Positions 2,429 through 49,661 of a stretch of DNA of 64,000 bases are shown here, piece after piece (position 1 is the stretch's first letter; every line of letters begins with the position of its first letter). The stretch is from Podospora anserina (lineage: Eukaryota), in NCBI GenBank assembly GCA_017654855.1, contig CM030336.1, positions 682,001 to 746,000 on the forward strand, read 5' to 3'. The notes beneath the pieces are model-generated. The model made no database searches, had not been told where the DNA came from, and saw nothing but the letters and a program-made list of their open reading frames with translations. The position numbers and the translations under genes were made by a program.

Positions 2429-4743
2429 TCAGTGGGCATTGCCATTCTTCTCGTTGTCATTGCAATTCCCATGCATCTTCTCCCAAGCGCTCCTCTTCAT
2501 CCAAATCTCCCCAATCGGACAACCATCCTTCTCAACACAGACCCAATCGCCAATACCATGCTCCTCTCCAGCACGCCTCACCCCTCTCCCACCACCACCA
2601 ATGATCAAATTTCCTGGCCGATATTTCTCGTGTGCCTTCATGCGGCGGATCACACTGCCATGGATACGGGCATCCTCAGGAATGTCACGAACTTCCCCGC
2701 AGGGGAGGGGCCAGCGAATGGGCTTCCAAGAGCCATCTTCTTGAAGGTCCATACGGCGGAAGGGGAGATACCTGGGAGGGCAACTGTTAGCCGGCCGGCA
2801 TACACGGTAAGGCAGAAAATAGTGGCTACGTACTCCATAATCTTCCAAGCTAACACTGAAGTCTTGCTCAGCCCGCAATCAAACTCGAGGGAGTCGTGAA
2901 TTCGAGCCGTGTGCGCTTTGTGCATCATTTCTCGGAACGACGAAGGCTTCTGCTGCCCGCTGCAGTCACCCTCCTTCTCGCCCGACCTTTTGGCACCACT
3001 GCTCCCGCCGTTGGCCTGAGAAAATGAGTCCTTGAAGCTGGATTGCTGGAACAACTTGGGTGTGCTCATACTCGAACTGCGGATCATGATGTTTGGAATC
3101 GGTGGGTTGGGCGGGCCCGAGGTCTCGTGAGGGGCAATCTCGTCATTGAGGGGCTGTTCCTGTCCTGACGACGGCGGCCTATACCCATGATCCTCGGTGT
3201 CGGGCTCGTCGTGGTCATGGAGAGCCTCGACGCAACCCATCTCGCGGACCTTCTCCTCGTCAAACGTCAGGCCTGCCTTGATCGCTTCGTGGACCATCCA
3301 GACCAAGGGAACGTGGCTGGCGACCTTGGAGTCCTCAAAGGTTTCCTCCCACCCACCACCAATATCCGCATGGCCTCCTGAGAACCACACTTCGTCGATG
3401 TCCTGATGGCTTTCCTCCTCGTCGCTTTCCTCACTCTCGGCAAATGATTCGGCGTCCTCCAGATGAGGATGGGGCTCGATTGATACCTCGGATTTGACGT
3501 CGTTCTCCGTCGGGCGCGCCGAAGCCTCGGTCTTGTTGGAGTGCCGTGATCGTGTCGAGTGGGAGCGCCTGCGATATGGTTCTGGATCCGTGGGCACGCC
3601 CAACGTGGGCCGTCGCCCTCTGTCGTCCTGGCCCTGTTTACCTTGGTGGGCGGGAGCGGCAGCGAATTTTCGTCTGTACTTCTCGTGGAGATTGTGGAGA
3701 CCATCGGACACTGGGTGATGGTGGTGCTGCTTCTTGCCGCTCTTGCTCTGGTACACCAAGTCCTGCCGGAACTTGGCGCGGCGCTCATCAATACTCACGG
3801 CGTGACGGACAACCTTTGCCGAGGTGCGCGCCGTGTAAGGAAACTTGCTCCTTTGCATCCAGGCTGCCTCAAACTGAGGTACACTGTTGACTGTGTCGAA
3901 GAGGCCGAGAAAGCGGATGCGGCGGACAGGGCGGGAGAAGGTCTCACGAAATCCCTTCATGAAGGTGTACATCTCCCTCTTCTTCTGGTTCCCTTCTGGA
4001 GTGTTGTCTCCCTGCCTGCTCTGCCAGTTGGAGAAGGCTTTCCACGCAAACACCACCATCTCCTCGTTACCGTGCGACAGCAGTCCGACATAATCCAACA
4101 TCTCGGCCAAGAATCGCGCAATGTACGCCCCACGCGAGAAGCCAAAGATGTAGATCTCATCTCCAGGGTTGTAGAACCTCATCAGGAACCGATAGCCTCC
4201 CACAACATGATGATCGAACGAGGACCCAATGGCACTGTCTTTGGCTTTCATGTACCAAGACTTGATACGCGCCACCGTTCCCGTGCGAGTCAAGCTGCTC
4301 GAGACAACATAGGTGCCAATTCCGGCTTCAGGATACAGTTTAGTACGACGCCCTACAACACAATGTAACACAATTCTTTATCACTCACGTTGATAATAAT
4401 GAACTAATCAGGTTGTCAGCACTCCAGTCAGATAATAGACGGTATCGAAATACTTACATTGATCCCTCGCTGTCCTGTCGAGCATTCGAAATATCTTCAA
4501 AATGTTGCTGTCGCTGTCGTCGCCATGGAACTTATTGCCTGTGCCATCGAAGCACAACACAATCTTGCTCGGCTTCCGGTGGCGAGACTGATGGTCTCTG
4601 TCTGGACCCATTGGAGTAACAGGACGAGATGGCAGATGTGTTGAGAAAAAGTCTTCGTGTGCGTCAATGTGGGACTCCCGATCTGGACTGGAGACTCTGA
4701 CACGGTTGCCCGGCCTCTCGGGCATGAGGTGCGACTTATCCAT
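2429..4743 (-). CDS. DUF2235 / Tle1-like alpha/beta-hydrolase (putative phospholipase), multi-exon
   Basis: Motifs IVLCFDGTGN, YIFGFSRGAY (GxSxG), LGLFDTV, HAVSIDERR and EVWFSGGHADIGGG across ORFs 4408-4818, 2650-4371 and 2429-2878. Start assumed at the first in-frame ATG (4743). Confidence 0.85.
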
Positions 4744-6344: not shown

Positions 6345-9300
6345 ATGTCAGATTACAACGGCAACGGGCACAAGGCCTCGAACGGCACGGGAGTTACTGC
6401 TCTCAATGGCTCAAGCTCGAGCCACGGGAGCTCGTCTGCCCACCAATCACGCGAGGGAATGGAACTTGTCGCCAGTCAAGCAAAGCCAAGGCCTACTCCT
6501 CTTGACTTGAAGCCCACGGGTGCAAACAGAGCTGGCGTTGCCAATGCCTTTGAGCGGTATGGCCAAGTGATGCAGTCATCAGTTGCTCCGTTGCCAAATC
6601 AGCATGGCGCCGACACATTCAGCCGATCGAAGAAATGGGGCAAACTCAGAGACGATGTCAAGCAACTGCGGCTTGCTGGTAAGTGTCATGTGATGATGTG
6701 GTGACTGGTCCGGTCGGAACACCGTTACTGACCTCGAGACAGACTACAAGACCCTTCTTGGTGTGGTCAAAGCCAAGGTCAAGGGCGAGAAGATCAAGGA
6801 TGACAAGACTATGGCCATGGAAAAGGTCATCCAGCTTGTGTCCAACTTGCCTAGCAACTCCAAGACACGCACAGAGCTCACCAACTCGTTTTTGAGCGAG
6901 CTGTGGTACACCCTTGAGCATCCCCCTTCGATGTATGTGGGTGAGAAGTTCCAGTATCGCCAGGCTGATGGGTCATATAATGTGAGTTTGGGTTTGTCAT
7001 ATCACTCGATTGCTCATCCTCATGCTGACGCCTTTCCAGAATGTTATGTTTCCCCAGCTTGGTGCCGCTGGCACTTCGTACTCCAGATCGGTGGCTGCCA
7101 ATGTCGTTCGGCAGGGCGCTCTTCCAGACCCCAATCTCATCTTCGAGTCAGTCATGAAGCGGACGGAGTACACAGAACATCCGAACAATGTCTCTAGCAT
7201 TCTATGGTATTGGGCCAGTATCATCATTCACGGTAGGTGTTCCTGTCAGCTGCCGGTTGTCGACATAATCACTAACGCACTGTGCAGATCTGTTCTGGAC
7301 AGACTACAGGGACATGAGCAAGTCCAAGACCTCTTCGTACCTGGACCTGTCTCCTCTGTACGGCAGCAACCAGGACATGCAGGACACCATCCGCACCTTC
7401 AAGGACGGCAAGATCAAGCCTGACTGCTTTGCTGACAAGCGCCTCCTGGGCATGCCACCCGGTGTCGGTGTGTTTTTGATCATGTTCAACCGCGTCCACA
7501 ACCATGTGGCTGAGAACTTGGCCCGCATCAACGAGGATGGCAGGTTTTCTCCCCCCAGCCCCAACCTTGAGGGCGAGAAGAAGGAGGCTGCGTGGAAGAA
7601 GTACGACAATGACCTGTTCCAGCATGCTCGGTTGATCACCTCTGGTCTGTACATCAACATCACACTGCTGGATTACGTCCGAAACATTGTCAACCTCAAC
7701 CGTGTTGATACCACCTGGACTCTTGACCCCCGTGTCGAGACTGGCATAAACGTTGACACCAAGGAGGGTGCCGAGCGTGGTACCGGCAACGTGTGCTCGG
7801 CCGAGTTCAACCTCTGCTACCGCTGGCACTCGTGCATCTCGGCCAAGGATGACAAGTGGATTCAGGATTTCTACTATGATCTCTTCAAGAAGCCGGGCAA
7901 GGACCTCTCTATTCATGAGCTCATCATGGGCTTCGGCAAGTTCGAGGGCATGATCCCAGATGACCCTGCGGAGCGTCCCTTCAACAAGTTCCAGAGAGGG
8001 CCGGATGGCAAGTTCAACGACGATGACCTTGTCAACTGCATCTCAGACGCCATTGAGGACCCCGCTGGATCTTTTGGCGCCCGAAACGTGCCCGAGTCGA
8101 TGCGGGCGGTTGAGATTCTCGGGATCATTCAAGGCCGCAAATGGAATGTTGCTGGCTTGAACGAATTCCGCAAGCACTTCGGCCTGAAGCCCTACGAGAA
8201 GTTCGAGGACATCAACTCCGACCCGGGTGTTGCTGAGTCTCTTCGTCGCCTGTATGATCACCCCGACTTTGTGGAGCTGTACCCTGGTCTCGTGGCGGAG
8301 GAGAGGAAGGAGCCCATGGTTCCTGGTGTCGGCATTGCGCCTACCTACACCATCTCCCGTGTCGTCTTGTCGGATGCTGTGTGTCTGGTGAGAGGTGACC
8401 GCCACTACACCATCGACTACACGCCACGAAACCTCACCAACTGGGGTTTCAACGAAGTTCAGTATGACTTGAACATCAACCACGGTTGCGTCTTTTACAA
8501 GCTCTTCCTCCGGGCTTTCCCCAACCACTTCAAGTACAACTCGGTCTACGCGCACTACCCCATGGTGACCCCGTCGGAGAACAGCAAGATTCTCAAGGAC
8601 CTCAAGCGCGCTCATCTCTTTGACTTCTCCCGGCCAGGCAGGATCGCCACACCCACCGAGGTCACCTCGTACGATGGTGCCCAGCGCATCTTTGCTGCTG
8701 AGGACAAGTTCAAGAGCACCTGGAATGCTGGTGTCGCTGGCATCCGCGCCAAGGCGAGCCCTGAGCTTTCTGGCGATGCTGCTGTCCACGACAGGCACCG
8801 CACCACTGCATCTCGGTCGCTGTTCACCCCTGAGCTGGGCACCCAGATCAAGGCCTTCTACGAGAGCTTGACCGACAAACTGCTCACCACCAAAAGCTAC
8901 ACTTTGGTACCCGGCAGCAAGTTTGCTGACCTTGTCCGCGACATTGCCAATATCGTGCCAACCCACTTTGCCGCCAGTGTCTTCGGCCTTCCGTTGACAA
9001 CCAAGGAAAACAGAAAGGGCATCTACACCGAGCACGAGCTTTACGCCGTCCTCCAGATCATCGCCTCTGCCCTCTTCGTCGACTCGGAGCCTGTTAAGCT
9101 CTTCCCCGTGGTGGAAGCAGCCAAGACGGTGGCTGGTCAGCTCGGCACCCTCGTCGACAAGACGGTCAAGAGCCCCAAGGCAGCCAAGAACAGCGTCCTC
9201 AACACCTTCGGCGTCAACTTTATCAAGGAGCTTAAGAAGGCCGGTTTGGCCACGCACGACATCACTTGGAACCATGTCCTCCCCACCGCTGCGGCCCTCG

Positions 9301-9934
9301 CCTCGAGCCAAGGGGAGCTGTTCACCCAAGCAGTGGATTACTACCTCTCCCCCGAGGGTGCCGCGCACGTAGCGGACATTACCGCCATTGCCTCCCAGCC
9401 TTCATCTTCCCAGAACGACGCTCTCCTCTTGGGTTACGTCCTGGAAGGCATCCGCCTGTCAGGTTCAGCTCGGTCTCACTTTGAAGCCACAACCGCCGGC
9501 ACTGTCATGGCGTCCAATGGCACGGAGCTGCACATCCAGCCCGGCAGCAAGGTTACCATCAACTCTGTATGCCCCTCTTTTACCTTTTTGTCCCCTCCAG
9601 TACTAACCTCTCTTGTTTCTAGTCAACCGCCTCCCGCGACGCAGCTTACTTCCCCGAGCCAGAAACCGTCAACCCCCGCCGTCCACTGGACAAGTACATC
9701 CACTTTGACGCCGGTTCCCATGCCTTCCTGGGCAAGGAGATTAGCCAGATTGCCCTCACAGAGATGTTCCGTGCTCTGTTCAAGAGGAAGAATGTCCGGC
9801 GCGCGCCTGGTCCGCAGGGAGAGCTAAAGAAGGTGCCGAGGGCGGATGGGAACGGGGTGGATTACCTCAGGGAGGACTGGGGTGCTTTGACACCCTTCCC
9901 TGTTACCATGAAGGTGATGTGGGATGAGGTTTAG
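6345..9934 (+). CDS. Ppo-family fatty-acid dioxygenase (heme peroxidase plus P450-like domain), PpoC/10R-DOX-like
   Basis: YRQADGSYN, WASIIIH, TSSYLDLSPLYG, EFNLCYRWHS and VELYPGL motifs; several GT..AG introns; last exon ends ...PFPVTMKVMWDEV* at 9932-9934. Confidence 0.9.
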
Positions 9935-11500: not shown

Positions 11501-11909
11501 TGTCACAGTTAAGCCAACAGGCAAGACGGACCATGTGCGGGGCACAAGACGCACAGCCAATCGCTAGTGGAACCAATTATAGGACGGGAGGATGGACCAA
11601 TAAGAGGCGGATCATCCAGGGCATAGGGAATCATGAATGATTCCTGGGAATCATTATGATTCTCGAGAGTCAGCCATGATCCTTAAGGAATAGAATGGTC
11701 CAGGGCTTGGCAGTAGGTCTATATATACGGAGGAACTGGCTGGTGTAGATAGACAGTTCCGCAGTATGCAATTCAAGTTGTATTCACGGCATCTTGTGTT
11801 TATATTGAGACATCTTGTTGTGCACTGTTTAGCTGCACCGAACCAGGATTATTCAGAAGTACCTTCAACCAGTATCCCTTTCAGAGGTTCTGGATAGGGG
11901 TTCGTCACA
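11501..11909 (+). mobile_element. Solo LTR (409 bp), crapaud-like
   Basis: TGTCAC...GTCACA ends, a 5-bp direct repeat GCGGG at 11496-11500 and 11910-11914, an internal TATA box, and a 3' half shared with the LTR ending at 20141. Confidence 0.9.
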
Positions 11910-12695
11910 GCGGGCGAGGATAATAATTATTACTACTTCCCACAAAAACGAGGAGGGGAAATAGCGTTTTATAGTGGAGTCAGGTCCAGAGCAGTACGAT
12001 GATAATTTTAGAGGGTGGCTAGTATGCTCGCCCCGACACTAGACGAGGATCTCGTTGACGGCTCCCGGATCACTCACGTTCAGCGAAAAAAAGTAGGGGG
12101 AGCGAATTATTAAGTCGTCAGATCTCACGAAGAGACGCATACCCTTGCTCTCTAGAAAACGCACTTCCTTGCCACCTACCAAGGAAAAGTCCGCACTTTC
12201 TTCCCCTCCACAGCCCGTCAAGCAGAGCCCGCAGCTTCCCCAGGAAATAAGAGTTATATTTAAGATTTGGATTTATAGCCAAGAGCGAAACCGCCGTGCG
12301 CTCTTGCACTCTTTGAAGTGTTTGGCCACGGACCAGCCGTACTTGAGGAACATCGAGGTACCAAATGAATTGCTAATAGTGCTGACATTTGCCGGCGTTT
12401 GCGTGTTGACAGCCTGTCAAAAGTACGACACCGTAGCCACCAGGTAAATAGAGCAGTCCAACGTTTATATAATTTATCACACAGTACTATGGAGAGAAAG
12501 GTATAAACCTGTTAAGGCGAATATCTGCTGCGTTGTATAATGTAATTATTTGCTGCTTAACGTAGTTCGACCACATTAACGTCGGAGTATATATATCAGT
12601 AGATTAAAACTATATATATAGCGGAAACAAAATATTCTAAAGCAATAACGTCTTCTAAAACCTTCACTTAAGCCAAAATATTGAAACATATATTG

Positions 12696-15600
12696 TTATA
12701 ACACATTATGATGTCCAACCTTCCCATTGAAATCAAATCGAAAAAGCCCAACCTGGCCAGAAGCACATCCTAGGGCGATGGTACAATTGTGTACTGCTGT
12801 ACATGTTGGCCGATAGTTAGGAGGAAGCCAGATAAGGTTCTTCCCATATCGTGTAATCCACTTATTACCGACAAAGAGAAAACCGTTGCCCGGTTTTTGG
12901 TCGGTAAAGTTATTTGCTGAACTCGGGGTTATCCTCAGCAATCCTCGATCTGTTTCAAGGTTGTCATTATCCAAAAACGATAGACCATTAACAATGCTAT
13001 GCCCCTCGAGGGTCCGCCAGTGCTCGCCGGTAGCCACATCCCAGAGCCGTACCGTGTTATCACGTGAAGCTGACGCTAGTGTGGCACCATCCGGCGAGAA
13101 CGCTACCGCTGTAACAAACCCGCTGTGCCCCTCGAGGGTCCGCCGGTACTGGCCGGTAGCCACATCCCAAAGCCGTACCGTGTTATCGCCTGAACCTGAC
13201 GCCAGTGTGGCACCATCCGGCGAGAACGCTACCGCTGTAACCCATCTGCCATGCCCCTCGAGGGTCCGCCGGTGCTCGCCGGTAGCCACATCCCAGAGCC
13301 GTACCGTGCCATCGCCTGGACCTAACGCCAGTGTGGCACCATCCGGCGAGAACGCTACCGCTGTAACCTCACTGCCATGCCCCTCGAGGGTCCGCCGGTG
13401 CTCGCCGGTAGCCACATCCCAAAGCCGTACCGTGTTATCGCCTGAACCTGACGCCAGTGTGGCACCATCCGGCGAGAACGCTACCGCTGTAACAAAACTG
13501 CCATGCCCCTCGAGGGTCCGCCGGTGCTCGCCGGTCGCCATATCCCAGAGCCGTACCGTGCCATCGTATGAACCTGACGCCAGTGTGGCACCATCCGGCG
13601 AGAACGCTACCGCTGTAACCTCACTGCCATGCCCCTCGAGGGTCCGCCGGTGCTCGCCGGTAGCCACATCCCAGAGCCGTACCGTGCCATCGCCTGGACC
13701 TAACGCCAGTGTGGCACCATCCGGCGAGAACGCTACCGCTGTAACAAAACTGCCATGCCCCTCGAGGGTCCGCCGGTGCTCGCCGGTAGCCACATCCCAA
13801 AGCCGTACCGTGTTATCGCCTGAACCTGACGCCAGTGTGGCACCATCCGGCGAGAACGCTACCGCTGTAACCCATCTGCCATGCCCCTCGAGGGTCCGCC
13901 GGTGCTCGCCGGTCGCCACATCCCAAAGCCGTACCGTGTTATCGCCTGAACCTGACGCCAGTGTGGCACCATCCGGCGAGAACGCTACCGCTGTAACCTC
14001 ACTGCCATGCCCCTCGAGGGTCCGCCGGTGCTCGCCGGTAGCCACATCCCAAAGCCGTACCGTGTTATCGTCTGAACTTGACGCCAGTGTGGCACCATCC
14101 GGCGAGAACGCTACCGCTGTAACCTCACTGCCATGCCCCTCGAGGGTCCGCCGGTGCTCGCCGGTCGCCATATCCCAGAGCCGTACCGTGCCATCGTATG
14201 AACCTGACGCCAGTGTGGCACCATCCGGCGAGAACGCTACCGCTGTAACAAAACTGCCATGCCCCTCGAGGGTCCGCCGGTGCTCGCCGGTAGCCACATC
14301 CCAAAGCCGTACCGTGTTATCGCCTGAACCTGACGCCAGTGTGGCACCATCCGGCGAGAACGCTACCGCTGTAACCCATCTGCCATGCCCCTCGAGGGTC
14401 TGCAGACACGCGTTCCACTCTAAGTCAACCATTGGCAGTACTGGGATCCATTCAGGAATATAACCACAGAATATTCCCCTGATTATACTTTTCATTGGCG
14501 CAAAAATAATTGCGGAAGTATAAGTCTGAAGGGGACAAATGTCGATAATCTGGCGGAAGCTAAGAATAAATCGTACTGCATCGTGTAAAAACGCGGAGAT
14601 CGTGGAACTATTACCGGGCTATATATTTCGTGTTAGCGAATATTTATAAATCTACCTTTGTACGTCTTACACTAAGGAGACCCTGTAAATCCCTAATCAT
14701 TCCAACACTTGTAGATAGTCTCCCAAGGAGACTTAGCGCTTCCAGCCAGTGGAGGAAATGACGTTCGAGGAAGGTGTATACTTGATGGTTATCGCTTATA
14801 CGAGAACTGCTTTGCTGAAAGTGATAGACCCAATATAGGCACGCATACCGGACATCTGATGGCAAACATGAGTCGATGACTGACGACTCAATATCGGCAC
14901 GAGCTGTTCCAGGCATTCCCAGATCGCAGATGTCCTTCTTCAAGTAATGAGAAAGAAGCTCCAAGCATCTACTCGCAATTTTTCCGTGGGTTGCACCCCT
15001 GTCTATCCAGAACGAGTTGGTGCCCTGTTTGTTGGGATCAACGAGAAAGTCATGGAATGACAAATGAAACATCCTAACCGGGGATGTAGGAGAGACCGGT
15101 ACGCTAAGGACGGAGTGAAGTGTTTCAAGTCTGCGAATAACGACCTTCTCTTGTATATCAAGAAGTCGGGCTAAAGAGCATATCGGGAGAGGTTCGGCTA
15201 AGAGCACAATTGGGCCCACGACCATCCGGAATTCATCAAGAAGGGATCTGTTAGATACTTCGGAACCGACAAGCAGCCGATCAAGGACTGGGCGATATGT
15301 TTTGTCTAGGTTGTCGATCTCGGATTGCTGTGTTCCTGACTGATATTCCAGGATCTTTGCTAATTGATCACCGGGATCACACCATGCTGGGTCCCGGATA
15401 AAACGGCAAACAGTAGCTGCAAAGATAAAGAGGGGAACGGCCATCTTGACCAAGTCTTGGACAATCTGGGGACCAGGCCAATCGTGCGGAAGCTGCCGCC
15501 CACCAGGAGACAGATCATTATAGTCGTTTCGGATTTTTGCAAGCTCAGAGTCCAGATATGCAGCGATGTCGTGCTCGATAATTGACTCTGGGATTTCATG

Positions 15601-17309
15601 CAAGACGAGATCCTGGTATTTTCCCTTAATCTTATTGAAGCCAAGTCGGACTGGCAACTCAGGTCGGCTTGTGAGGAAAGCTCTTAGCCGTACTGAACTC
15701 AGACTCTTTGCTTGTGACAACAGGGAAATGATATCCCTGATATCATCGTCCTGTTCGCACTCATCAAGGGCATCAATCACCAGGACAATTGTCTTGATGT
15801 CGTCCAAACTGCCTCTTTGGTTTTCCAACGGCTTTAGGATCAGCTTCTCAAACTGCTTACTCGGCAGTTTGTTGCAGATGAAAGGGTCAGCCTCAATAGC
15901 AGCCTTGATATACGATGCCAAACTAGGCTCTTTGACAACAAGCTGAGCCGCAATGGTTGTAAACAGCAAGACGGCCTTGCTCCGGTCTCTCTCGCCTCTC
16001 TTAAAGAAGAAGCTGGCACCGAGAAGATTTTGGTCCGCAAACGATTGCGCGACTGTGCGTGATATGGTGGACTTCCCAGTTCCTGCCATGCCGTTTAGCC
16101 AGAAGATGCATTCGCCCTGCGGATCGTCCGCCCATGCCATTATGTCCCGCTGGAGGCCAACTCGGGTATCAGGGTGACATCGCGCATCGTGCTCGTCCGT
16201 GTGGGAGTCAAAGGCAGCACCGTTCGCAATGGTGAGCTTGTCAAGGATGGCATCGCGGATCGTCTGCGAATTCGAGCGTATCTCGTCAAGCACACCACTA
16301 CTGATGGTTAGAAACCTTAGAACTTGGAGTTGGGGGGTAGAACATACGTCATCTTCCCGTTAATCCACTGTTTAAGATCGTCAATGGAGTTATATCCCTC
16401 CGGCGGAATCTCAAGCGCTTCCAGAAGACCGTGTGGGGAGACGGGGGTGTCAAAAGACGCCCTTTTCGTCAAACTCTCCCTGAACCTAGTGCCATCTCTT
16501 GCAATTTCTTCGGTTGCCGTTGCCAACTCAGCTCTACCCCCAATCTTATTTGCGCGCTTCTTCAGTTTATCCTCCATGTAAGCCAAGCAGAGCGCATAAC
16601 AAAGAGCGTTGCCATGCGCCATATCTATCACGATCTCATCCTGGCGAGTAAGAGATGAACCCTTATACAAGAGCGGGTGTGCAAGCTTGTTGTAAAGATC
16701 TTCCGCGATAGTCGTGACTTGTATCTCGAACATCACGTCGCAGAACTGAGAAAGGGCTCCGCATTTCGCTTTTTCCAAGCTGACGCGATAGTTGCGAGTC
16801 TCGTAGGCACCGAACCGTGTTTTCCAGGACCGGCCAACCTCACGGTCACGGACGAAAATAACCGGCTCCTCTTCCTTCCGAAAACTTTCGTTGATGAAGC
16901 AATCGGCTTCCTCCATATCGTCAGCAAATTCGAGGATGATCCTGAGTCCGACAAGATCATGAATGTTACTGAATATGTCAGAGAAGCTCTCGAATTGCTT
17001 TTGGCTGCGATCCAAGAGCGCTTTCTCCCGCCGATCGAGTGACTTTCTGATTGAATCGACCTGCTTAGTTCTGCTTTTGACTTGGCAGTCAATAGCTCTG
17101 CACTCGAGAGCACTTTTGCAAAATTCCTCCAGTCTCTCCCTCATAGCGTCGTACTCATTTAGCAATTTAGGCCAGACGTCGTTGACGAAAGCGCTTTTAG
17201 GATCTGGGCTAACAGGCCCCTCGGTCATTTGATTGATTTTCACCCGCAGTGATTGATTTGGAGCATCACCGTCGCCCGCTTGAGGCGGAGCTTGCGAATG
17301 TACATCCAT
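12696..17309 (-). CDS. NLR: N-terminal RelA/SpoT-type nucleotidyltransferase + NACHT + WD40 repeats (about 1504 aa, 3 exons)
   Basis: Exons 17309-16348, 16300-14671 and 14618-12696 are joined by GT..CTAAC..AG introns and sum to 4515 nt, which keeps frame. RelA/SpoT motifs: SRTKQVDSI, IHDLVGLRII, GAYETRNY, FEIQVTT, LAHPLLYKG. Walker A GMAGTGKST, Walker B LVIDALDEC. Confidence 0.9.
13014..14399 (-). repeat. 11 tandem 126-bp WD40 repeats with high internal conservation
   Basis: Unit TLEGHGxxVTAVAFSPDGATLAxxxxDxTVRLWDVATGEHRR, nearly identical at the DNA level. Confidence 0.97.
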
Positions 17310-17930
17310 GGTATGCTGGCGGCGTAGTGTTCTACCAATCGACCAAATGAAGTGCTGATCGTGGAGGTGATGGGGCCTTGTCTCAAAGGTTGACGGACTC
17401 GTAGGTAGGCAGTACAGAAGTTGGATAAGGGAGATAATTAGCAGCCAAAGGCTCCTGGAGCGACGACAAGGAGCCAGGCAGCTGTTCCGCCATTGCATTG
17501 GGCATCCAGCTAATGCTGCAATTCCTGCAGCTACCTGTGTCTATCGGCCTACATGAGCGAATCACACCGTGCCACATGACGAAGATAAGGTCTGTGCTGG
17601 GTTTGAATCATGCCGTGCTACGCGACGCACATAGACGGCCTGCAACGAGGCACTTTGCAAGGCAGCCCAGGGCGGAAGGCTTACTGCGCCACAACCTCAA
17701 GCTGCACGTGATATTAGCGACATGCATATCGCACTACATAAGGCAGTCGAACAAGGTGCATTAATCTCAATCGTTGGACACTGAGAGTTCTTAACAGAAC
17801 TGCAATCTGAGGTTTGGAGACTTCCACGCTTATGAACTTGTACGGGGATTTACAAACCTCAAGCTGATTCTTACACACACTTCTTCCCTCTCCTTCAGAT
17901 CGCTATCCTTATAAAGGTTGGACGAGGAGG

Positions 17931-19418
17931 ATGAACTACGAAAAAGGATCATACAGAGATTTTGTCCAATCTCGATGTCAAACCAACCCTTGCGTCACTG
18001 GATTAGCCGACTATTTGAGATGTGGGCCTGGAGCTGCAAGTACCATCGTTACTCTCGACTACTCCCGGAATGGACAATCGGTACTGAATCCTCTAACGGT
18101 AGCCGAGGTTGATCTGGCCAGACTGATGGGCGCCACCTCTACAACCGCTGGCCGGATTGTGCTCGTCGAGAACATCCAACCCCATCTAGTCAGTTTTCTC
18201 GGCGAGATTTTTGATGTGGATCCAATCTTCTTTGCCGGCCACGTCACCACCGACTTCAAAGACATCGAGAGAGCACCGCCTCCTCCTTCACTTGCGTTGT
18301 TTCCATCCCAGATTGCTGAAAATGGCTATCTCCATCTCCACTATCAGCAGGTATTGGACCTGGGAAGCGCAGACGCGTTCACATCTTCGTACAGTCTGAA
18401 ATCGGACTCCAACGTTCCTCGAAATGTCAGACGCCTACCGCATCTATCAGGCCGACAGCTTGCTTTGGCTCGAGCGTGCTGTTCTATTCTAGTGAAAAAG
18501 ATCAAAGGCATATGGATTTGTAAGTCTTGCTCAGATATTCGGTGCATCTTGACGGCATCTCTAACAGTAGTAGGCCTAATCCTGGTGGATCCCCCTGTAA
18601 ATATGGTTCTTGAGACGTTGGGGTTAGGCGGCCGAAAGTCACATCCAAGTATGATGTTGCATGGAGGATTCGAGGAATTTGAGCAACCGACGTCTTTCGC
18701 GTCTTTCGGATCTACCACGAGCGATCGTTTACCAGATAAGAAGTCGATGCTCAGCAACCTGCTCCGCTACTTCCGCCACCAACCACCTGGGTTCATGATA
18801 GCCGAGCCTAGCATCTTGAGCCTCGGCTACTACCCGATACGCATAGTCTTAGCTGAGTGGATTCTTTACAAGCTCCTGATGAGTCGTTACTTGAAATATT
18901 ATGAATATACTCTGCACGACATCGAGAATCGACTGCACGATAGCGACATTATCGACCTTCAACGTTGGCGGCGGCGGAGCATGCAAAGCCGACACAAACT
19001 AATTCTTCTCTCTGAGTTCATCGATTATTGGTTACAACAGGAATCCAACAAGCAGCCGTGGGATTTTATACTGAAAGATATCAAGCATGTATCGTCACAG
19101 CTAGAGCTTTACAGCCGCTCGCTCGAGCATATGGTCCCAGTAGCAACATCGATGGTACAGCTGCTCGACTCGCGGCGGTCGATACAAGAGGCTGCCAACG
19201 TTAGCCGGCTCACTTTTATTGCGCTGGTGTTTGTGCCGCTGTCTTGGGTCGCCAGCCTTTTCAGCATGTCAGAAGATTACTCTCCAGGACACAAGAGCTT
19301 TTGGGTATATTTTGCTACTGCACTGCCAGTTATGATTCTAGTCTTGCTTTTATCAACTGTGCAATGGGATCGACTAGAGGGAAAACTGGACAGGATTTGG
19401 GTAGTTTTACGACGGTAA
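17931..19418 (+). CDS. CorA-like membrane protein (C-terminal two-TM hairpin)
   Basis: A coiled segment is followed by SIQEAANVSRLTFIALVFVPLSWVASLFSMS..FWVYFATALPV, which resembles the CorA TM1-loop-TM2 with GMN replaced by SMS. Probable in-frame intron from 18520 to about 18573. Confidence 0.8.
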   Translation: MNYEKGSYRDFVQSRCQTNPCVTGLADYLRCGPGAASTIVTLDYSRNGQSVLNPLTVAEVDLARLMGATSTTAGRIVLVENIQPHLVSFLGEIFDVDPIFFAGHVTTDFKDIERAPPPPSLALFPSQIAENGYLHLHYQQVLDLGSADAFTSSYSLKSDSNVPRNVRRLPHLSGRQLALARACCSILVKKIKGIWICKSCSDIRCILTASLTVVGLILVDPPVNMVLETLGLGGRKSHPSMMLHGGFEEFEQPTSFASFGSTTSDRLPDKKSMLSNLLRYFRHQPPGFMIAEPSILSLGYYPIRIVLAEWILYKLLMSRYLKYYEYTLHDIENRLHDSDIIDLQRWRRRSMQSRHKLILLSEFIDYWLQQESNKQPWDFILKDIKHVSSQLELYSRSLEHMVPVATSMVQLLDSRRSIQEAANVSRLTFIALVFVPLSWVASLFSMSEDYSPGHKSFWVYFATALPVMILVLLLSTVQWDRLEGKLDRIWVVLRR

Positions 19419-19737
19419 ATGGGAAGACGAAGGACTGAGGCAGTGTTAGCGTAGCTATACAAAATGTAACAATTGTGCTATAATCTACACGTTGCCTTGC
19501 GTTTTCCATTAGCTTTCCAGAGAGTTAATGTGAGTCTTAATGGATCACAGTTCCCGGCCGTACATTCGCTTTGAAATACAAAAATATAAACATCACGGCA
19601 CCGGCCGGTATTTTCGAAATTCCACCGGTACTGCCTTTTTTTTACCTTTCTCTACGTTATTATAATAGGCGTATTTATTAACCTTTAATATTTATACTAA
19701 CATTATTAACTTTACTTTTTCGATTTTACCATCTATA

Positions 19738-20141
19738 TCTCACGCTTTTGGAAGACAGTGGGGACACAAGGAACCAATCAGGGCTGGACCGGGCGATCGA
19801 GCGGGGCTCGCGGTGGTGGACAAACGGACCAGTAAGATGGGGACCGGGGACCGCGGCGGGGCTCACGGTCCACGGTCCAGTATCGGCCAATCAAGAGGGG
19901 ACCGAGGACCGTCTGTAAGTCAACGGTCCACGGTCCCCTGATCTATATATACGGAGGAACTGGCTGGTGTAGATAGACAGTTCCGCAGTATGCAATTTCA
20001 AGTCACAATCGTTGATATCTAGACTGTTGTGATTGAGACAAGTCATTTGCTGTACACTGTTTAGCTGTACCGAACCAGGATTGTTCAGAAGTGCCTTCAA
20101 CCAGTATCCCTTTCAGAGGTTCTGGATAGGGGTTCGTCACA
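19738..20141 (+). mobile_element. Solo or recombined LTR, crapaud-like (about 404 bp)
   Basis: The 3' half (TATATATACGGAGGAAC...GGGGTTCGTCACA) matches 11720-11909 and the 5' half differs. Start is degenerate (TCTCACG) and no TSD is visible. Confidence 0.8.
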
Positions 20142-24715: not shown

Positions 24716-26754
24716 TTAGTTCTTGATATACCAATCAGGATGCTCACCAACCCACTTCTTGACCTTCAACCCAGAATCGATCTTGGGGAAGGGGTTAGTA
24801 GGCCAGTATGCCCTCCAGGCATTGCAGTTGTTGTTGTGCTGGTTCTTGTCCGCCTGGCTGAAACCGTTGCGCAAGTCATTGGGGCGCTCGAGATACTGCA
24901 CCGACAAACCGCCAGACACGTGCCAGGCAATGTGGCAGTGGAAAAGCCAAGCACCGGGGTTGTCAGACTTGAAGGCGATGAGCAGCCATCCGTTGGCGGG
25001 AAGCATGGCGACGTCGCGACGGACCGGGTTGGAGCTCTTGAGCAGGGCCATGTCAGTGGCGGGATTGAAGCGGTAGCGTGTCTGAGGAACGCCGGCCGGT
25101 TGGTCGGGGGAGCGGCCGACGACGAGGAAATCATGACCGTGAAGATGCATCGGGTGCGGAATGCTGAAGGGGCCGGTAGGGTCGTTCTCGATGAGCCAGT
25201 AAGTCCACTGGTTGACGCTGTTGACGGTGATGACGTTGGCTTGAGGAGGATAGCTGGTGTTTTGGGCAATGACGTAGTCAACAATCGGTTTGTCCCAGTC
25301 GACATTAATGGAGCTGCCATTGACCTTCCAGACAAAGAGGGGTGTGCCGCCGAGGGTCAAGGAGACGGGTAGAGTGTTGTTAGGGCGGGGAGTGAAGCCA
25401 CTAGTAGGAACGCTGCGGGAGACAACAGGTGTCAAGTTGTTGAGGTCCATGCAGTTGGCATCAGCAGCAGGAGTGCCAATGTTGGTCGGGAGAGTGTTAG
25501 GAGCTCCCTGGTAGCGGAAGACCGCAGCCGGGTGAGGATTGAGCGAAGCACCGCAGGCAAGACCGCCGCCAAAGGTGGCGTTGAACCAATAGTTCCCAAC
25601 ACTCTTGTTGGCGTCAATAGTGACATCGTAGCGCTGGCCAACGGCAAGGAAGAGACTGTCAACAGTCTGGGCCTGAACGGGAACCATGTCGGCGGCAATG
25701 ATGGTCATGGTGTGATTCTGGAGCTTCAGCTGGAAGTGATCGTGGGTCGAGGTGTTGATGATGCGGAGACGATGACGCTTGCCGGGGGTGAGCGTGACAT
25801 TGGCAAATTTACCAGCGCCGGTCTGGGGATTCTTTCCGTGCCCTTTGAAGAGAACAGTGTCACTGGGAGGGGGACCGCCATTCATGGTTTCCTCAACCAG
25901 GACATCAGCCGGCTTGTGGTAGTAGTCGGTGATGGGGAAGACACCAAGATCGATATCGTAGGGAACCGAAGCAGGACCATTGACCACGATGGTGCCAACG
26001 ACGCCGTTGCCGTATTGGGCCGAGAAATGCGAGTGGTACCAACTGGTGCCATATTGCTGAGCGCGGAACCTGTAGATGCGGCTGCCTCCCTTGGGCGGGA
26101 TAGGGCATTCGGTGACACCGTTGGCACCATCGTGCATGTTTGTTCCTTTCTGGTGGAGACCGTGCCAATGAATAGAGGTGCTGCGAGAAAAGAGTCAGTA
26201 CAAGTTCCATGGGCAGTAAACAATATCAATGTGAGAAACATACCCATTAGTCCTGAGATTGTTGATGACATTGACTTGAATCCAATCACCCCAGTTAGCA
26301 GTAATGGTAGGCCCTGAATCACCTGTTAGCATAGCCCTTGTCAGATGGTACGGCAGTGAACATACCAAAGATGTCACCATTGACAAGCATGACCTTCTGC
26401 TTAACCACGCCATCAGGACCGAGCCAGTTGTCAACTTCGGTCAAGGTCAGAGTATACTATAAGGCTGTTAGTAACCAGGGGCACCATGACTTCATCAAAG
26501 GGGCAAAAGCATACGGTGCGTGTGACTCCGGTGTTGGGAGTGCTGACTTCGTAGTCCGTGTTGATATCAAAACCAGGGGCCCAGCAAGCACGGTTGGCGG
26601 CAGTGTGGCACGAAGACTGCCTCTCTTCGACGGGACGAAGAAGATCACGAGTGACCTCACGGGGCACGCCCGGGAGAGAAGGTGCGGCCAGGACGGCGCT
26701 GGGTGCGACGAGGCCAAGCAGGAGCGCCGCGGCGCTGAAGAAGGACTTCATCAT
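24716..26754 (-). CDS. lac2: Secreted ascomycete laccase (AA1 multicopper oxidase)
   Basis: Signal and propeptide MMKSFFSAAA...VEER; Cu motifs HWHG, WYHSH, HPMHLHGH, HCHIAWH; introns 26457-26514, 26314-26365, 26181-26243; DSGL followed by a C-terminal extension. Symbol given from recalled resemblance to Podospora laccase 2. Confidence 0.93.
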
Positions 26755-39104: not shown

Positions 39105-42100
39105 TTAAGTACCTCCATAAATACCCCACAACACACCCTGGCCATTGCTGCTACCCGAGCACTCCATCTCGCCTCTGGCAGCCACTCGCCCGTTCTTGCC
39201 GAACTTCTGTACCGAATCGTTGATGATGTCGATGACATCCTGCCCGCCCACCCGGAAATCGACGTTCAATCCTATATGCGTTGCCTCGATTCCGAACCGG
39301 CAAGACCCAAAACTGAGAATCTCTCGGTGCGGCTTGCCGGCCACCTGGTGTCTCCACTCGGTAGTGCCGTCTCCTTCGATGTTGCGGATGATTTGGAGAC
39401 AATCAGAGATCAAGGGGGAGCCGCCGTGGGTTCGGTCCTCAAAGGTGGACATGCCACAGTAGCCACGCCCCGGGGGAACGTCACAGGGCCAATTCGGTGT
39501 GGAACCGTGTGCACTGCTGTCCCAAGTCTGCCTCGCTCGCTCCGGAGAGCAAACAGGGAGCTTTATGAATCCTGGTATCCTGATGTTGAGATCATACAGG
39601 TCCTTCTTGACGTTTGAGTCGAAGACATTGGGACTGCCCGCAAGAGGATCGCCGTTTTGGCGGCCATTGGCAACCCACGTATTGACAGACCCAAAGATCA
39701 AATCTTCCTTGGTCACTCCACCATATTCACTGATAGAGCCGAATCCAGGCGGCAGTATGAACTTGGCCCAGTTGCAATCTCCGCCTTCCGAGCATATGCG
39801 GGCTTTGTCTTTGTCAGGCATCACGAGGTAGTATCTGCGGCCGTTCACACACACACCCGCCTTATTCATCGTGTCATCCGAGAGGTAATCCAACACTGGC
39901 CTGTTGGCATTGCAGTCGGCACCGGAGTCAAGAATGAAGGCGTATGATTTGGAAAAGCGCCAAAGATGCGGAATACCAAAAACCAAAAATCGTCTTGGTA
40001 GTTTGGTCTCGGATTGTGCTGGCCGTCGGCTTGTCCGGTCGCACCACGTTGTCGTCAATTTTCCCTTCACTCAGTTGTCCATTCTTGATCATATCCCACA
40101 GCTGATCAAGTGCGGCATCATCTGGGACGTCAAAGAAACGCAACAGTGACTTTTCAGAAGCATAGGACCAGCCGTTGAGAACCTCGCCCAAATAGCTCGA
40201 GAACTTGTTCTGGGCTTGGGGATTCCAGTCGGTTCCTTTCGCTGGAGGCAATAGCTCCTTGGCAATCGACGTGGTGGTACCAATGACGCCCATAGTAAAA
40301 TCCTTTGCGTTGTTCAATGAGCTCTCGCGTGGAATGAAGTAGGGAAGGGTTCTCAGGAAGTTGTTGAAGAACTGTGCGGCCACTGTGAGGGTCCCCAAGC
40401 CGACGAGGTCCAGTAGGATTTTAACCCACTTGTCATCGTCCTTGGGTGGCGGGATGGAGGCAAAATCGTCGTGCATGCTGTTGAGCTTGGGGGTTACAAA
40501 GGCGGCGGCATCAACGAGGCTGTTGTGGTATTCGTGGTGCATCTGGTGGATATATATAAGAGCGTCAAAAATTAGCTTCGCTGCCGGTCCGGACTTTTCT
40601 TCATCCAAGCCCTTCTCGCATTCAATTGCGTTGTCGCAGTTGTCTCCCGTCAATAAAAACGAGTAGCATTTGGGGCTGGACCCCAATCGGAAGATCTGCT
40701 CCAATCTCTCCATCAGCTTCCTCCTCTGAGGTCTGAATGTCTCTTTGTAAAGCTTGATGCCCTCCCTCCATGCAGTATCCGTGTCTAGAGCGTGCCAACG
40801 GTATGATGGAGAGCCAACCGTGTACAGATCCGTGATGGCCTGATGCGTGCAGCTGTACGTCTTCCACCTTCCTGGAGGCGTTGACACGGTGTTGTTGAGC
40901 TTTGGGTCTTCCCCAGCTTTGATCTTGGCGATGTGGCTGTCTGGCTCTTCATTCCAGCTCTTGCTCGGTGGCGGGGGATCGTTGAAGACTTGCATGTCAC
41001 TGGCCCAGTCAATTAAGCCGCCCATGCCCAATGACGCATAAACGGCCGCACGAATCTCCTTGGACTCTTCGGACATGTAAGAAACCCACTGGTCATTGTC
41101 GTAGACCAAGATGTCGCTATGGCTGGCTGTGTCGATGTACCGCGTGACCACGCGGCTGCCCCTTGCGCTGATACCGTTGCCCCCTCCGTTGATAATCTCG
41201 TTGATCTCGGCATCTGCAATGTATCCACTGGTGTCGGTACATCTTCCAGGGGTTGCAAACGAGGTCAAACGGTCGCCAGTGAAATGGCAGCTGGGCCCCC
41301 AGCAGCCAGGTTGGGCCATCTGGAAAGACCTGCCATAACTGGTGACGCCGACGAGTATCTTGTGCCCGGGAACTCCGGTCTTGGTTATCATGGCCAGCGA
41401 CTGCGCTGTCTCGGTCATGTTTGTTTGGCTACGGAGACAGTTACCCGTTGGGCATCCCTCTTGAGACCATCGCGAACCGGCATCCCATTGTCCATGTAGA
41501 TCGTACGTCATGTAGACAATGTAGTCGACCACCGTTCCTATTTGCTGAATGGGGAACTGTTTCAGATACCAGTAGGATTCAGGGGCTGCAATGGCAGTTG
41601 ACCGGCCCGGCAGCAAAGTTTTGAGTATGATCAGGAAGGCAAGGTAGTTGGGACCGTCTTCGGCCTTTCCGGGATCAAACTCTGGAAGATCAGGGGCTCC
41701 TAGATACTCCCAGTCAATGTCGATGCCGTCGAGACCATGTTTGATGATGAAATTTGCGATGTTTGTTGCCATACGGCGACGGTTTTCGGGCTTGACGCCA
41801 TTTCGGAAGATCAGATATGTCGCTGGGTCAGTGGAGAAAGCCCAACCTCCAAAAGACAGGATCCTCTTGACATTGCGGAGGCGCTTGAACTCGCGGAACT
41901 GGTACTGAGCCAGTGTGTCGCCAACCTCAACCTCGTAATCAGGGGTCAAGGTGCCGAAGGCGAAGTGCAGATGTGTGTATTTGGACGTGTCGATCTGGGA
42001 GGGATCCTGATAGAGACCTGGGCGACTCAGAATGTAGCCTTGAAAGTAGGCAAGCTTGATGGCACCATTTCCGGTTCCTCGGATGATAGCATTTCCGCAG

Positions 42101-43429
42101 TTGGAAATACAGCTATGGGTACCTGGAGCTGCTGTCCCTGGAGCACCGTTGCCTCTCGTATCAACGCAAAAGTCTTTCGACACACCGCACTGACCCCAGA
42201 TATTGCAGCACGATCGCAAGGGACAGGGGTTCATATTGGCAATATTGGAGCCATCTGTCGGCCGTGTTGAACCTGGCTTCTGAGGGCCACACACAGCGTT
42301 GGCGACGGGGGCCAGGAAGGGGGCTGTCCCTGAGCTCAAGCACATCCTCGTTCCAACCCACAGCAACTGGCACCCATTCCAGCCCCAGGTGTTCTTGTTG
42401 AATGTCTCGATATCGATCACCTGTAGGCCGTATTCGGCGGCACGGTTGGCACAGTTGTCGTCCGGCTTGACCGAGTAATCGAAGCAGGACCCGTCCGCCT
42501 TCGTCTTAGGTCAAAGGTCGGGAAGGGTCCCCTCGGTAAAGCAGACATGTTGCTTGGGACGAAGAGAGCCGCAAATCCCGGGGTTGAGCCGGTCAAAGTT
42601 GAAAGGAGTGATGCCGCACTAGACTGCCAGCTCGGCGCAGCCATTGCCTGCTTCCACCTGCACGGTTCTGCAGGTAGCTCGTTGTTGGAGTGCCTGCGAG
42701 CGCTGCTGAAGTCCATGTCGGAGCGTTCTCGCACGTAGTGTGGAGTTGGTTTGTGTTGTGTTGTCGTGCAAGAGCGTGGAGTTGGCACGAAGAAGTGGGG
42801 TCAAGAATTTGGCCTCACTAGGGAAGGTGGTCGACTCGGTGAAAGAAAGGCAAGTGGCATTGGCCCAGCCTTTGATGGCATCTTGAATAGGTGAAAAGGT
42901 ACTATTACTCATGATAGCGACGCCAAACACATGGGTGCTGTCATAGCCGGACCCACAGAGCTGCATAGCGAGCTGTGGTGTCGAGACATTGAGCCTGTCG
43001 AGGTTGTCTTGCAGAATGCGTAGAGCGGATTCGCCAAGTCCCTGGTTCAGAAGGCCCTGACCAATGTAAATACCGAGTGTAGCCTGGCCAGACTGACCGA
43101 AAATGATGAAAGGCGTGTCCGTCGCGCCATGTCCTCGAGCAACATAGGTACGGATTTGCTGGATCAGGGAACGAATGCCAGCGGCAGGCAATCTAAAGCC
43201 TTCTTCCCACCATCAAATCTCAAGATTGACCTCCATAGTCTCAGCAGTTTCCACATCGGCACTGGCCACAGCCTCCGAAGTTGGAATCTGTTCGAAATCT
43301 GGGCCAAAGGAAGAGCAAGCCTGGATGCGGTGTCCGCACAGGAGGCTCAAACCCCATTGCAGCCACATCTGTGGACAGCAAGAGGCCTACAGCCCCGAGG
43401 ACTGTCGTCTGCCAGGATAAACGAGGCAT
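39105..43429 (-). pseudogene. Subgroup C (killer-toxin-like) GH18 chitinase: LysM x2 + CBM18 + GH18 + C-terminal Hce2/Ecp2-like domain, disabled
   Basis: GH18 motif LDGIDIDWEY; hevein CCNIWGQCG; LysM CRTVQVEAGNGC; Hce2-like CGMSTFEDRT..SPLISDC..VGGQDVIDII..LWGIY. Stops at about 43213, 42619-42621 and 42511-42513; +1 frameshift in a T run near 39980. Confidence 0.88.
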
Positions 43430-49100: not shown

Positions 49101-49661
49101 CTGGCTACGCATCCAACTGCAACCGCTGGTACAAGGTTCGTTCCGGGGACCAGTGCGATACCATTGCCAGCCGTAACGGTATCACCATAGCCCAGATCCG
49201 TACTTGGAATAGCCAGGTCAACGCTGGTAAGTTGAGCCTTCTTCCATACATCTGTCTGCGTGACTGAAGCAAGTTCTTTCGTACCCCGACTGACAAACAG
49301 GACAGGCTGCACCAATCTCTGGCTCGACTACTACATTTGCATTGGCGTCCTTGTCACCGCACCGTCTCCGCTCATGCCTGGCACCGCTGGTACCTGTAAC
49401 CGTTGGCACTTGGTTGCATCTGGGGACCAGTGCGACAACATCGCCTCGAGAAACGGCATCACCGTGGCCCAGTTTAGGTCTTGGAACACGCAGGTCAATG
49501 CCGGTAAGTCTACCCATTTGTCTCGTCGACGACAGACCCCTACTCCAGTGCTGACATGACTTGATTGTACCTACCTAGGCTGCACCAATCTTTGGTTGGG
49601 TTACTACGTGTGCACCCGTGCTGAGCCTGCTGCGGGGGCTTTGAGATGCTTGGTTTTATAA
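46160..49661 (+). pseudogene. Secreted multi-LysM protein (5 LysM domains) disrupted by a transposon, a frameshift and stops
   Basis: Repeats of NCNRWxKVxSGDQCD..NGI..QxRxWN..CxNLWLDYYVC. Frameshift near 46220, TE at 46369-48312, stops at 48434-48436 and 48641-48643. Confidence 0.88.
46369..48312 (-). mobile_element. pogo/Fot1-like (Tc1/mariner superfamily) DNA transposon, 1944 bp, RIP-inactivated
   Basis: About 30-bp TIRs GG(G/T)TGGATGACCAGGAAATGGCCCACCCAC; TA target duplication at 46367-46368 and 48313-48314; transposase starts at 48124 with MAKYTEEDL..GVPRSTL (HTH); the DDE region is full of TAA/TAG stops. Confidence 0.95.

Follow-up and report, generated by a model that had tools for sequence, protein, structure and literature searches.

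A RelA_SpoT-bearing NOD-like receptor and a CorA-like membrane protein form a conserved gene pair and candidate nucleotide-signaling module in Podospora anserina and other, distantly related fungi

A 64,000-nucleotide stretch of the Podospora anserina genome (GenBank assembly GCA_017654855.1, contig CM030336.1, positions 682,001 to 746,000; hereafter the window, with positions counted from its first letter) carries, head to head, a gene encoding a NOD-like receptor (NLR) with a RelA_SpoT-type pyrophosphokinase domain at its N-terminus and a gene encoding a CorA-superfamily membrane protein (Table 1). A first-pass annotation made from the DNA letters had described an intact RelA/SpoT-NACHT-WD40 NLR lying about 620 bp from a divergent, intact CorA-like gene; Pfam matches, gene models and spliced contigs confirm both genes and their uninterrupted reading frames, and the distance between the start codons measures 621 nt. 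Comparison with other fungal genomes and metagenomic loci strongly supports the existence of a conserved two-gene module, in which a predicted pyrophosphokinase of the RelA_SpoT type is coupled with a CorA-superfamily membrane protein of its own.

Table 1. Coordinates of the paired genes, their parts and further genes in the window (aa, amino acids; AF2, AlphaFold2; ORF, open reading frame; TM, transmembrane helix; TRF, Tandem Repeats Finder).
Feature	Position	Strand	Details and evidence
NLR gene	12696..17309	minus	ATG at 17309, stop codon ends at 12696; 1503 aa; ORFs, gene model and splice joints
NLR exons (stop included)	17309-16348, 16297-14671, 14618-12696	minus	Splice joints in 4/4 runs
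NLR intron 1, at boundary of effector module and NOD	16298..16347	minus	50 nt; joint 16297/16348, 4/4 runs
NLR intron 2	14619..14670	minus	52 nt; joint 14618/14671, 4/4 runs
NLR exon 1, N-terminal effector module	16350..17309	minus	320 aa, RelA_SpoT at about aa 70-225; Pfam PF04607
NACHT (NPHP3_N-type) P-loop NTPase core	15652..16143	minus	Exon-2 ORF aa 73-236; Pfam
WD40 array	12995..14400	minus	11 highly similar repeats, 126-bp units; TRF, Pfam, repeat families D1/D2
Divergent intergenic region common to both genes	17310..17930	.	621 nt; sequence between the two ATGs
CorA-superfamily membrane-protein gene	17931..19418	plus	Exons 17931-18519 and 18574-19418; 477 aa
CorA-like gene intron	18520..18573	plus	Joint 18519/18574, 4/4 runs
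TM1, loop and TM2 of CorA-like protein	19200..19364	plus	AF2 model helices
S-M-S codons in place of CorA G-M-N	19263-19271	plus	Profile alignment to CorA chains
HET-domain protein	59747-61507		Long ORF
Tle1-like (DUF2235) phospholipase	2650-4377		Long ORF
Haem peroxidase	7269-9827		Long ORF
Multicopper oxidase	24716-26194		Long ORF
GH18 chitinase with chitin-binding module	39928-42510		Long ORF

The exon-2 ORF of the receptor gene matched NPHP3_N (E 4.5e-31) and NACHT (E 4.5e-8) in Pfam, WD40 was matched in 11 stretches of exon 3, and the WD40 array is encoded by a 126-bp unit repeated 11.2 times with 93% matches. The N-terminal 320 aa are 96% identical to P0121, that is PODANS_5_1230, listed in other Podospora records as 'NACHT and WD40-domain containing NOD-like receptor 5', and the closest protein matches of both window genes (92-96% identical) belong to the Podospora anserina species complex. 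An N-terminal effector, a NACHT domain, highly similar WD40 repeats and orthology to PODANS_5_1230 place the protein among the fungal NWD-type NLRs, and judged by sequence the gene is the known nwd5 (Pa_5_1230) or its orthologue. Expression of nwd5 rises 3.62-fold during incompatibility (Bidard et al., PMC3689799, Table 3).

Spliced contigs covering the NLR gene and the CorA-like gene were found in all four public runs examined, which come from four studies; the three introns, all with GT..AG ends on the coding strand, are removed in these contigs. None of the runs is recorded as RNA and their labels give RNA only as a guess, but because contigs from all four lack all three introns, both genes are transcribed and spliced; read depth was not taken as an expression ranking across the runs. 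The NLR contigs end at 17503 at most and the CorA-like contigs start at 17777-17851, so that the shared promoter region is short. In two of the four runs (X1 and X7), the contigs omit exactly 1260 bp, equal to 10 WD40 units (window 13125-14384), reflecting either a repeat-number difference between strains or an assembly collapse of the repeats.

The head of the NLR matched RelA_SpoT (PF04607) with 39 bits against a cut-off of 27 (E 1e-9, ORF aa 156-294). The motifs R-x-K...S, H-D-L-x-G-x-R, F-G-A-Y, F-E-I-Q and H-x-L-x-Y-K are kept in 48 NLR homologues, and among 52 more diverse RelA_SpoT members, R80, K82, R94, Y215 and K216 are invariant, with D118, G121, R123, E195, Q197 and H211 conserved in at least 90%. 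The set that we take to comprise the catalytic and ATP-binding motifs (R-x-K-x3-S, D-x-x-G-x-R, E-x-Q and H-x3-Y-K) is complete in the window protein. An AF2 model of the head, built from the 52-sequence alignment, reached a mean pLDDT (predicted local distance difference test) of 86.2 with a core above 90, and in a Foldseek search it lay closest to the small alarmone synthetases RelQ/RelP (2be3, E 1.8e-8, template-modeling score normalized to the target 0.72), with further matches to Bacillus subtilis SAS1 (5dec/5ded) and Staphylococcus aureus RelP (6ewz). CapRel (7ztb), a tRNA pyrophosphokinase, was a weaker match than RelQ/RelP (rank 33, E 2.4e-6), and a PDB sequence search with the head returned the small alarmone synthetase family as well. 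Like RelQ/RelP (2be3, 5dec, 5ded, 6ewz) and CapRel (7ztb), the fungal enzymes combine the synthetase fold and catalytic motifs with no hydrolase domain; unlike them, they form part of a eukaryotic NLR or carry a helical C-terminal extension of about 230 aa, have an altered Y-x-x-x-H position, and share 15-20% identity with the bacterial proteins. They also appear to differ from toxic bacterial relatives in that no antitoxin-type neighbor was recognized here, the 477-aa CorA-like protein being the sole conserved neighbor. From its conserved motifs, the head looks catalytically competent and under purifying selection.

The C-terminal CorA match of the partner scored 42.2 bits against a cut-off of 27 (E 8e-11), and orthologues 92-96% identical occur in Podospora species under locus tags of the form QC76x_501220, e.g. 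QC763_501220 (Pa_5_1220-type numbering). An AF2 model of the spliced orthologue P0003 (92% identical; 86-sequence alignment; pLDDT 86.7), with helices at 357-427 and 437-458, aligned over about 440 columns with full-length Thermotoga maritima CorA (Foldseek, E 3e-10), and by this model the partner is a complete CorA fold, more than a CorA-like tail. Like T. maritima CorA (3jcf, 4i0u, 8tmb), it has an N-terminal alpha/beta domain, a long stalk helix and two C-terminal TM helices, and the F-x-P-L-(S/T) TM1 signature of T. maritima CorA is present; unlike that protein, with which it shares 10-13% identity, it has S-M-S for G-M-N and a conserved basic Q-R-W-R-R-R cluster in a cytosolic helix. The G-M-N motif is the magnesium filter of canonical CorA. 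In a profile alignment, 'L-F-S-M-S' of the partner stands opposite 'I-Y-G-M-N' of the CorA chains, so that the G-M-N signature of CorA/MIT proteins at the end of TM1 is replaced by S-M-S; F426, S427 and M428 hardly vary among 86 family members, and a relative of the lichen type described below carries S-M-N. Eleven cytosolic positions, including the near-invariant Q-R-W-R-R-R at 326-331, hold K or R in at least 90% of the 86 members. The loss of G-M-N together with this conserved basic cluster fits a protein that does not select Mg2+ and may bind an anionic ligand. Only Ascomycota CorA-like clusters were returned by a search of the ESM Atlas, which gave no further clue to function. In Clonostachys byssicola (P0059) and C. 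solani (P0071), a Pol-beta-type nucleotidyltransferase (PF18765/PF01909) follows TM2 in proteins still encoded beside a RelA_SpoT NLR; either two genes were merged in these models or the domain is a genuine third component, and it was not counted as evidence.

The first-pass annotation had named a lack of linkage in other genomes among the results that would refute it; instead, the two genes proved to be neighbors by accession in 13 of 15 species pairs, by locus tag in one more (Pyricularia grisea), and in five metagenomic locus types. The species pairs were chosen by comparing the protein lists of both genes for species in which both proteins lie on an equally long contig, the CorA-like list holding the best 120 of 162 matches from 8000 scored candidates. 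Consecutive GenBank accessions were found in the 13 pairs; Pyricularia grisea showed consecutive locus tags in two assemblies (PgNI_12016/12017 and MCOR25_009598/009599), as did a further Stachybotrys assembly (S40288_04663/04664). Adjacent pairs occur in Podospora, Parachaetomium, Chaetomium, Schizothecium, Apodospora, Cladorrhinum, Fusarium (2 species), Clonostachys (3 species), Stachybotrys and Pyricularia, and the paired species span Sordariales, Hypocreales and Magnaporthales.

When metagenomes were scanned with the CorA-like alignment, 39 loci emerged, in which RelA_SpoT was sought by tblastn, Pfam and a hidden Markov model (HMM). Among loci L001-L019, 8 of 19 have a RelA_SpoT gene and the CorA-like gene side by side; they represent five locus types, of which L001, L002, L015 and L010/L013 are head-to-head and L004/L014/L017 tandem. 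Two of the five types come from a clade whose named relatives are lichen fungi, and relatives of the L004-type enzyme are found in metagenome-assembled genomes of lichen fungi, e.g. Usnochroma, Protoblastenia and Letrouitia. The remaining 20 loci (L020-L039) were weak, with C-terminal matches only, resembled ordinary prokaryotic CorA and gave no RelA_SpoT match, and they were set aside. The PADLOC candidate model PDC-S33 matched the stand-alone lichen-type enzyme with E 7e-12 and the window protein only with E 0.0065. In the lichen-type head-to-head locus, a short RelA_SpoT-like fragment sits between the NLR and the CorA-like gene; such fragments (HMM E 5e-8 to 3e-6) lie at 9198-9377 in L010, 9233-9454 in L013 and 50-328 in L011, and may be relics of another synthetase copy. 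The RelA_SpoT-NACHT model P0159 of Fusarium austroamericanum additionally contains amine-oxidase/FAD-type Pfam domains, which is either an unusual insertion or a merged gene model.

The receptors paired with the CorA-like gene include NACHT-WD40, NACHT-ANK (Stachybotrys, L010) and P-loop-TPR (Cladorrhinum PSN332) architectures, and the partner in L004 is a stand-alone 437-aa RelA_SpoT protein, with no NOD-sized ORF in the 2.6 kb downstream of its gene; PF04607 is the sole Pfam domain of the stand-alone partners. In an all-against-all ORF comparison, only the two genes were common to the locus types, and the flanks of L001, L004 and L010 gave no match to the whole 64-kb window. Because the pair is kept despite changed surroundings, orientation and receptor body, the unit is best described as 'synthetase domain plus CorA-like gene', a pattern which also argues against the CorA-like protein as a target watched by the sensor.

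Maximum-likelihood trees of 20 pairs, compared as the earlier annotation had proposed, had nearly the same topology, with Stachybotrys (Hypocreales) and Cladorrhinum placed in the same unexpected positions in both; the patristic distances correlated at r=0.983, a value matched by 0 of 5000 label permutations and inflated by shared species history. The two lichen-type pairs have diverged alike (CorA 52.6% and RelA 50.7% identity), and between L001 and L002 the CorA-like protein is 84.7% and the enzyme 57.6% identical. L004 and L013, one locus of each lichen type, fall under the same assembly accession prefix. One dispersed noncoding element (about 200 bp; 81% mean column identity) occurs in the flanks of both L004 (about 14487-14714) and L010 (about 14433-14675), and no tRNA was found in it; this element suggests that the lichen-type loci L004 and L010 belong to one genome. 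Together, the shared prefix and element fit the view that the whole pair was duplicated inside a single genome, without amounting to proof.

RelA_SpoT-bearing fungal NLRs, including nwd5, have been catalogued since 2012-2014 (PMC3321046, PMC4986451, PMC3689799, PMC12258605), with entries in Dyrka 2014, Wojciechowski 2022 and a 2025 Sordariales survey. A 2023 review, in its accessible text, calls them a 'minor yet intriguing clade' and names no output (PMC10197012), in agreement with the earlier remark that such heads had been listed without a known output. The window NLR shares with the catalogued nwd5 class its RelA_SpoT-NACHT-WD40 architecture and highly similar WD40 repeats; the accessible portions of those reports (PMC3321046, PMC4986451, PMC3689799, PMC12258605) regard the domain as an effector in its own right with no known output and do not mention the CorA-like neighbor, whereas here it is paired with a CorA-like gene. 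The term 'CorA' occurs 0 times in the accessible text of PMC3689799, PMC10197012, PMC13449251 and PMC9815663, and that of PMC4986451 contains only 'coral'. The first-pass annotation had reported no fungal description of the pairing, and literature searches aimed at it, covering accessible article text without supplements, likewise returned none; as far as searched, the two-gene module is undescribed.

Among bacterial systems, type III-B CRISPR (Cmr) offers the nearest parallel, in that a nucleotide-forming enzyme is genetically coupled to a CorA-family protein, which binds the nucleotide messenger SAM-AMP (S-adenosylmethionine-AMP) with presumed membrane disruption (PMC10600005). The analogy drawn in the earlier annotation is one of function, not of family. 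In the CRISPR protein, the N-terminal domain has a unique fold and CorA-like sequence is confined to about 172 C-terminal residues (PMC10600005), whereas the fungal protein aligns over about 440 columns with T. maritima CorA; the synthase in type III CRISPR is Cas10, whereas the fungal candidate synthase is, by sequence, a RelA_SpoT pyrophosphokinase; and the CRISPR CorA has an obligate messenger-degrading neighbor (NrN, DEDD or SAM lyase; PMC10600005), whereas none is common to the fungal locus types. The PADLOC CorA model PDLC01174 matched the fungal protein only at residues 392-456, the TM region, with E 0.003. With no unique N-terminal domain, this weak match and no obligate phosphodiesterase, membership in the CRISPR type III CorA family was rejected.

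Within fungi, the pair resembles the NWD2/HET-S clusters, where the NLR adjoins its presumed partner, clustering is kept with variable orientation and the unit is seemingly inherited whole (PMC3321046). In NWD2/HET-S, a short amyloid motif links the NLR N-terminus to the effector C-terminus (PMC3321046), whereas here no motif is shared and the head is an enzyme. A relay through an amyloid or homotypic motif was rejected, as the best BLASTP match between the NLR and the CorA-like protein had E 11 and hhalign gave a probability of 0.2%.

A functional two-gene module is well supported because the linkage is conserved, the trees are congruent, and the linkage tracks the RelA_SpoT domain, including that of a non-NLR protein. 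The best-supported reading, by analogy and with a prospect of about even, is that a signal synthetase on the NLR NWD5 gates a CorA-like membrane effector. A ligand bound by the WD40 repeats would cause the NACHT domain to oligomerize, as general knowledge of NLRs suggests, and oligomerization would gather the synthetase heads and turn them on. The heads would then move pyrophosphate from ATP to an acceptor nucleotide, yielding a small polyphosphorylated messenger, which may be (p)ppGpp-like, (p)ppApp-like or other. This messenger would dock in the cytosolic funnel of a CorA-like pentamer, where the 11 conserved basic positions including Q-R-W-R-R-R are predicted to lie, and the CorA-like protein, having no G-M-N filter, would open or otherwise perturb the membrane on binding, leading to death or arrest. 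The interpretation in the first-pass annotation, that a (p)ppGpp/(p)ppApp-like signal might open the CorA-like protein and kill the cell, is an analogy of the same kind, and as a whole it is partly supported. More tentatively, and with a chance somewhat short of even, the Pezizomycotina may possess an old, portable, messenger-gated two-gene death module that was repeatedly plugged under NACHT-WD40, NACHT-ANK and TPR sensors and also exists without a sensor.

Several observations weigh against a synthetase that signals to the CorA-like protein. The NLR heads have N-Y-R-V or N-H-H-V where small alarmone synthetases have Y-x-x-x-H; therefore, GDP or GTP should not be taken for granted as the acceptor substrate. 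The partner, having lost G-M-N, may not conduct ions at all, and no conserved third gene able to degrade the signal is common to the locus types. Bacterial toxic RelA_SpoT enzymes kill without a partner, so that an effector is not logically required. The tree congruence is confounded by the species history common to both genes.

The linkage also has gaps. The Madurella genes share a 583-kb contig with accessions 28 apart; among loci L001-L019, no RelA_SpoT gene was found in 10, mostly with less than 3 kb of flank, and L011 has a RelA_SpoT-like fragment only. A same-contig or adjacent-tag CorA-like partner was found for 17 of the 48 RelA_SpoT-NLR matches, leaving 31 without one among the matches listed. 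The P. anserina and P. pseudoanserina orthologues account for two of these 31; the matches listed contain no same-species CorA-like entry for them, and the window shows their arrangement; with unnamed sources, different assemblies and the best 120 of 162 matches used, 31 is an upper bound on the orphans, some of which still look real. In Apodospora, four RelA_SpoT-NLRs lie on four contigs, only one of them beside a CorA-like gene, and a fifth contig carries another CorA-like gene (P0015). CorA-like relatives also occur in species with no listed RelA_SpoT-NLR, e.g. Fusarium graminearum FGSG_04860. A diffusible messenger would account for orphan receptors served by one common effector, but independence of the two genes explains such orphans equally well.

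Among the alternatives, the head may itself be the executioner, through ATP depletion or tRNA pyrophosphorylation in the manner of bacterial toxic small alarmone synthetases, with the CorA-like protein as a guarded target, decoy or modulator linked to the receptor. This is consistent with the intact synthetase motifs, with the tRNA pyrophosphokinase CapRel among the structural matches, with the placement of RelA_SpoT among direct effector domains by Dyrka et al. (PMC4986451), and with PLP-1/SEC-9 as a known case of a fungal NLR linked to a monitored protein (PMC10197012). However, a guarded target should co-vary with the sensor, whereas the linkage follows the N-terminal enzyme through three NOD/repeat architectures and a sensorless enzyme, and the CorA-like protein evolves more slowly than the enzyme, as the L001/L002 comparison indicates; we regard this explanation as unlikely.

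A reversed order of action, in which the CorA-like protein senses or regulates, responding to ion or membrane status, and controls a synthetase whose nucleotide product is the output, appears rather less likely again. In its favor, the stand-alone RelA_SpoT partners carry no sensor domain recognizable in Pfam, and CorA proteins are generally gated by cytosolic ligands. In most pairs, however, the synthetase is part of an NLR that has sensor repeats of its own, and the loss of G-M-N speaks against ordinary cation sensing by transport.

It is also improbable, if only slightly more so, that the head directly binds or covalently pyrophosphorylates the cytosolic domain of the CorA-like protein with no diffusible messenger. 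The tight co-divergence is of the kind that physically interacting partners show, but the two proteins share no motif or homotypic segment (BLASTP E at least 11; hhalign probability 0.2%), and in several genomes RelA_SpoT NLRs outnumber the linked CorA-like genes among the matches listed, for which a shared diffusible signal is the better fit. Inherited synteny with no functional meaning is very improbable, for although all paired species belong to the Pezizomycotina, so that adjacency could persist passively, and species history alone could yield the tree congruence, the flanks differ even between the window and a Sordariales-like locus with a 77% identical CorA-like gene, the orientation shifts from head-to-head to tandem while adjacency is kept, the head and its neighbor stay together when the NLR body is exchanged, and two paralogous pair types (L004 and L013) lie under one assembly accession prefix.

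The setting of the pair in the window bears out only weakly the earlier description of an island littered with transposable elements. In its favor, dinucleotide indices resembling repeat-induced point mutation (RIP) appear in the 1-kb windows 12001-14000 and 19001-20000, and a direct repeat of about 200 bp brackets the pair (11718-11909 and 19942-20141; 87.5% identical, with a 95-nt core at 95%, 8.2 kb apart); both copies may stem from one small dispersed element, or they may mark the limits of a mobilized unit. Against it, none of the 10 long flanking ORFs in the window encodes a transposon protein in a Pfam scan, seven being ordinary genes and three having no Pfam match. Among the other long ORFs of the window (Table 1), the HET and lipase-like genes lend the region a flavor of incompatibility or defense. 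A unit of about 145 nt occurs in three diverged copies (window 48740-49509, spacing 243-277 bp, 72-76% identity), which are probably repeated protein modules of a gene at that position.

For the RelA_SpoT heads of fungal NLRs, the dedicated, conserved neighbor provides a concrete and testable partner with which to address the question of their output. Chimeric NWD receptors with known ligands exist in Podospora, a tractable and non-pathogenic model in which the messenger model is directly testable. Should the pair be a portable module, NWD5 would be a eukaryotic NLR whose signal reaches a separate membrane executioner by way of an alarmone-like second messenger, and the system would be the fungal equivalent of bacterial CBASS (cyclic-oligonucleotide-based antiphage signaling system) or type III CRISPR signaling and of plant TIR-NLR nucleotide signaling. 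The messenger model, if true, would place alarmone-type chemistry in immune signaling inside a eukaryote, and a second CorA-family protein would have been recruited independently as a nucleotide-gated effector. The fungal rule of 'NLR plus clustered effector gene' would then extend from amyloid and protease relays to small-molecule relays.

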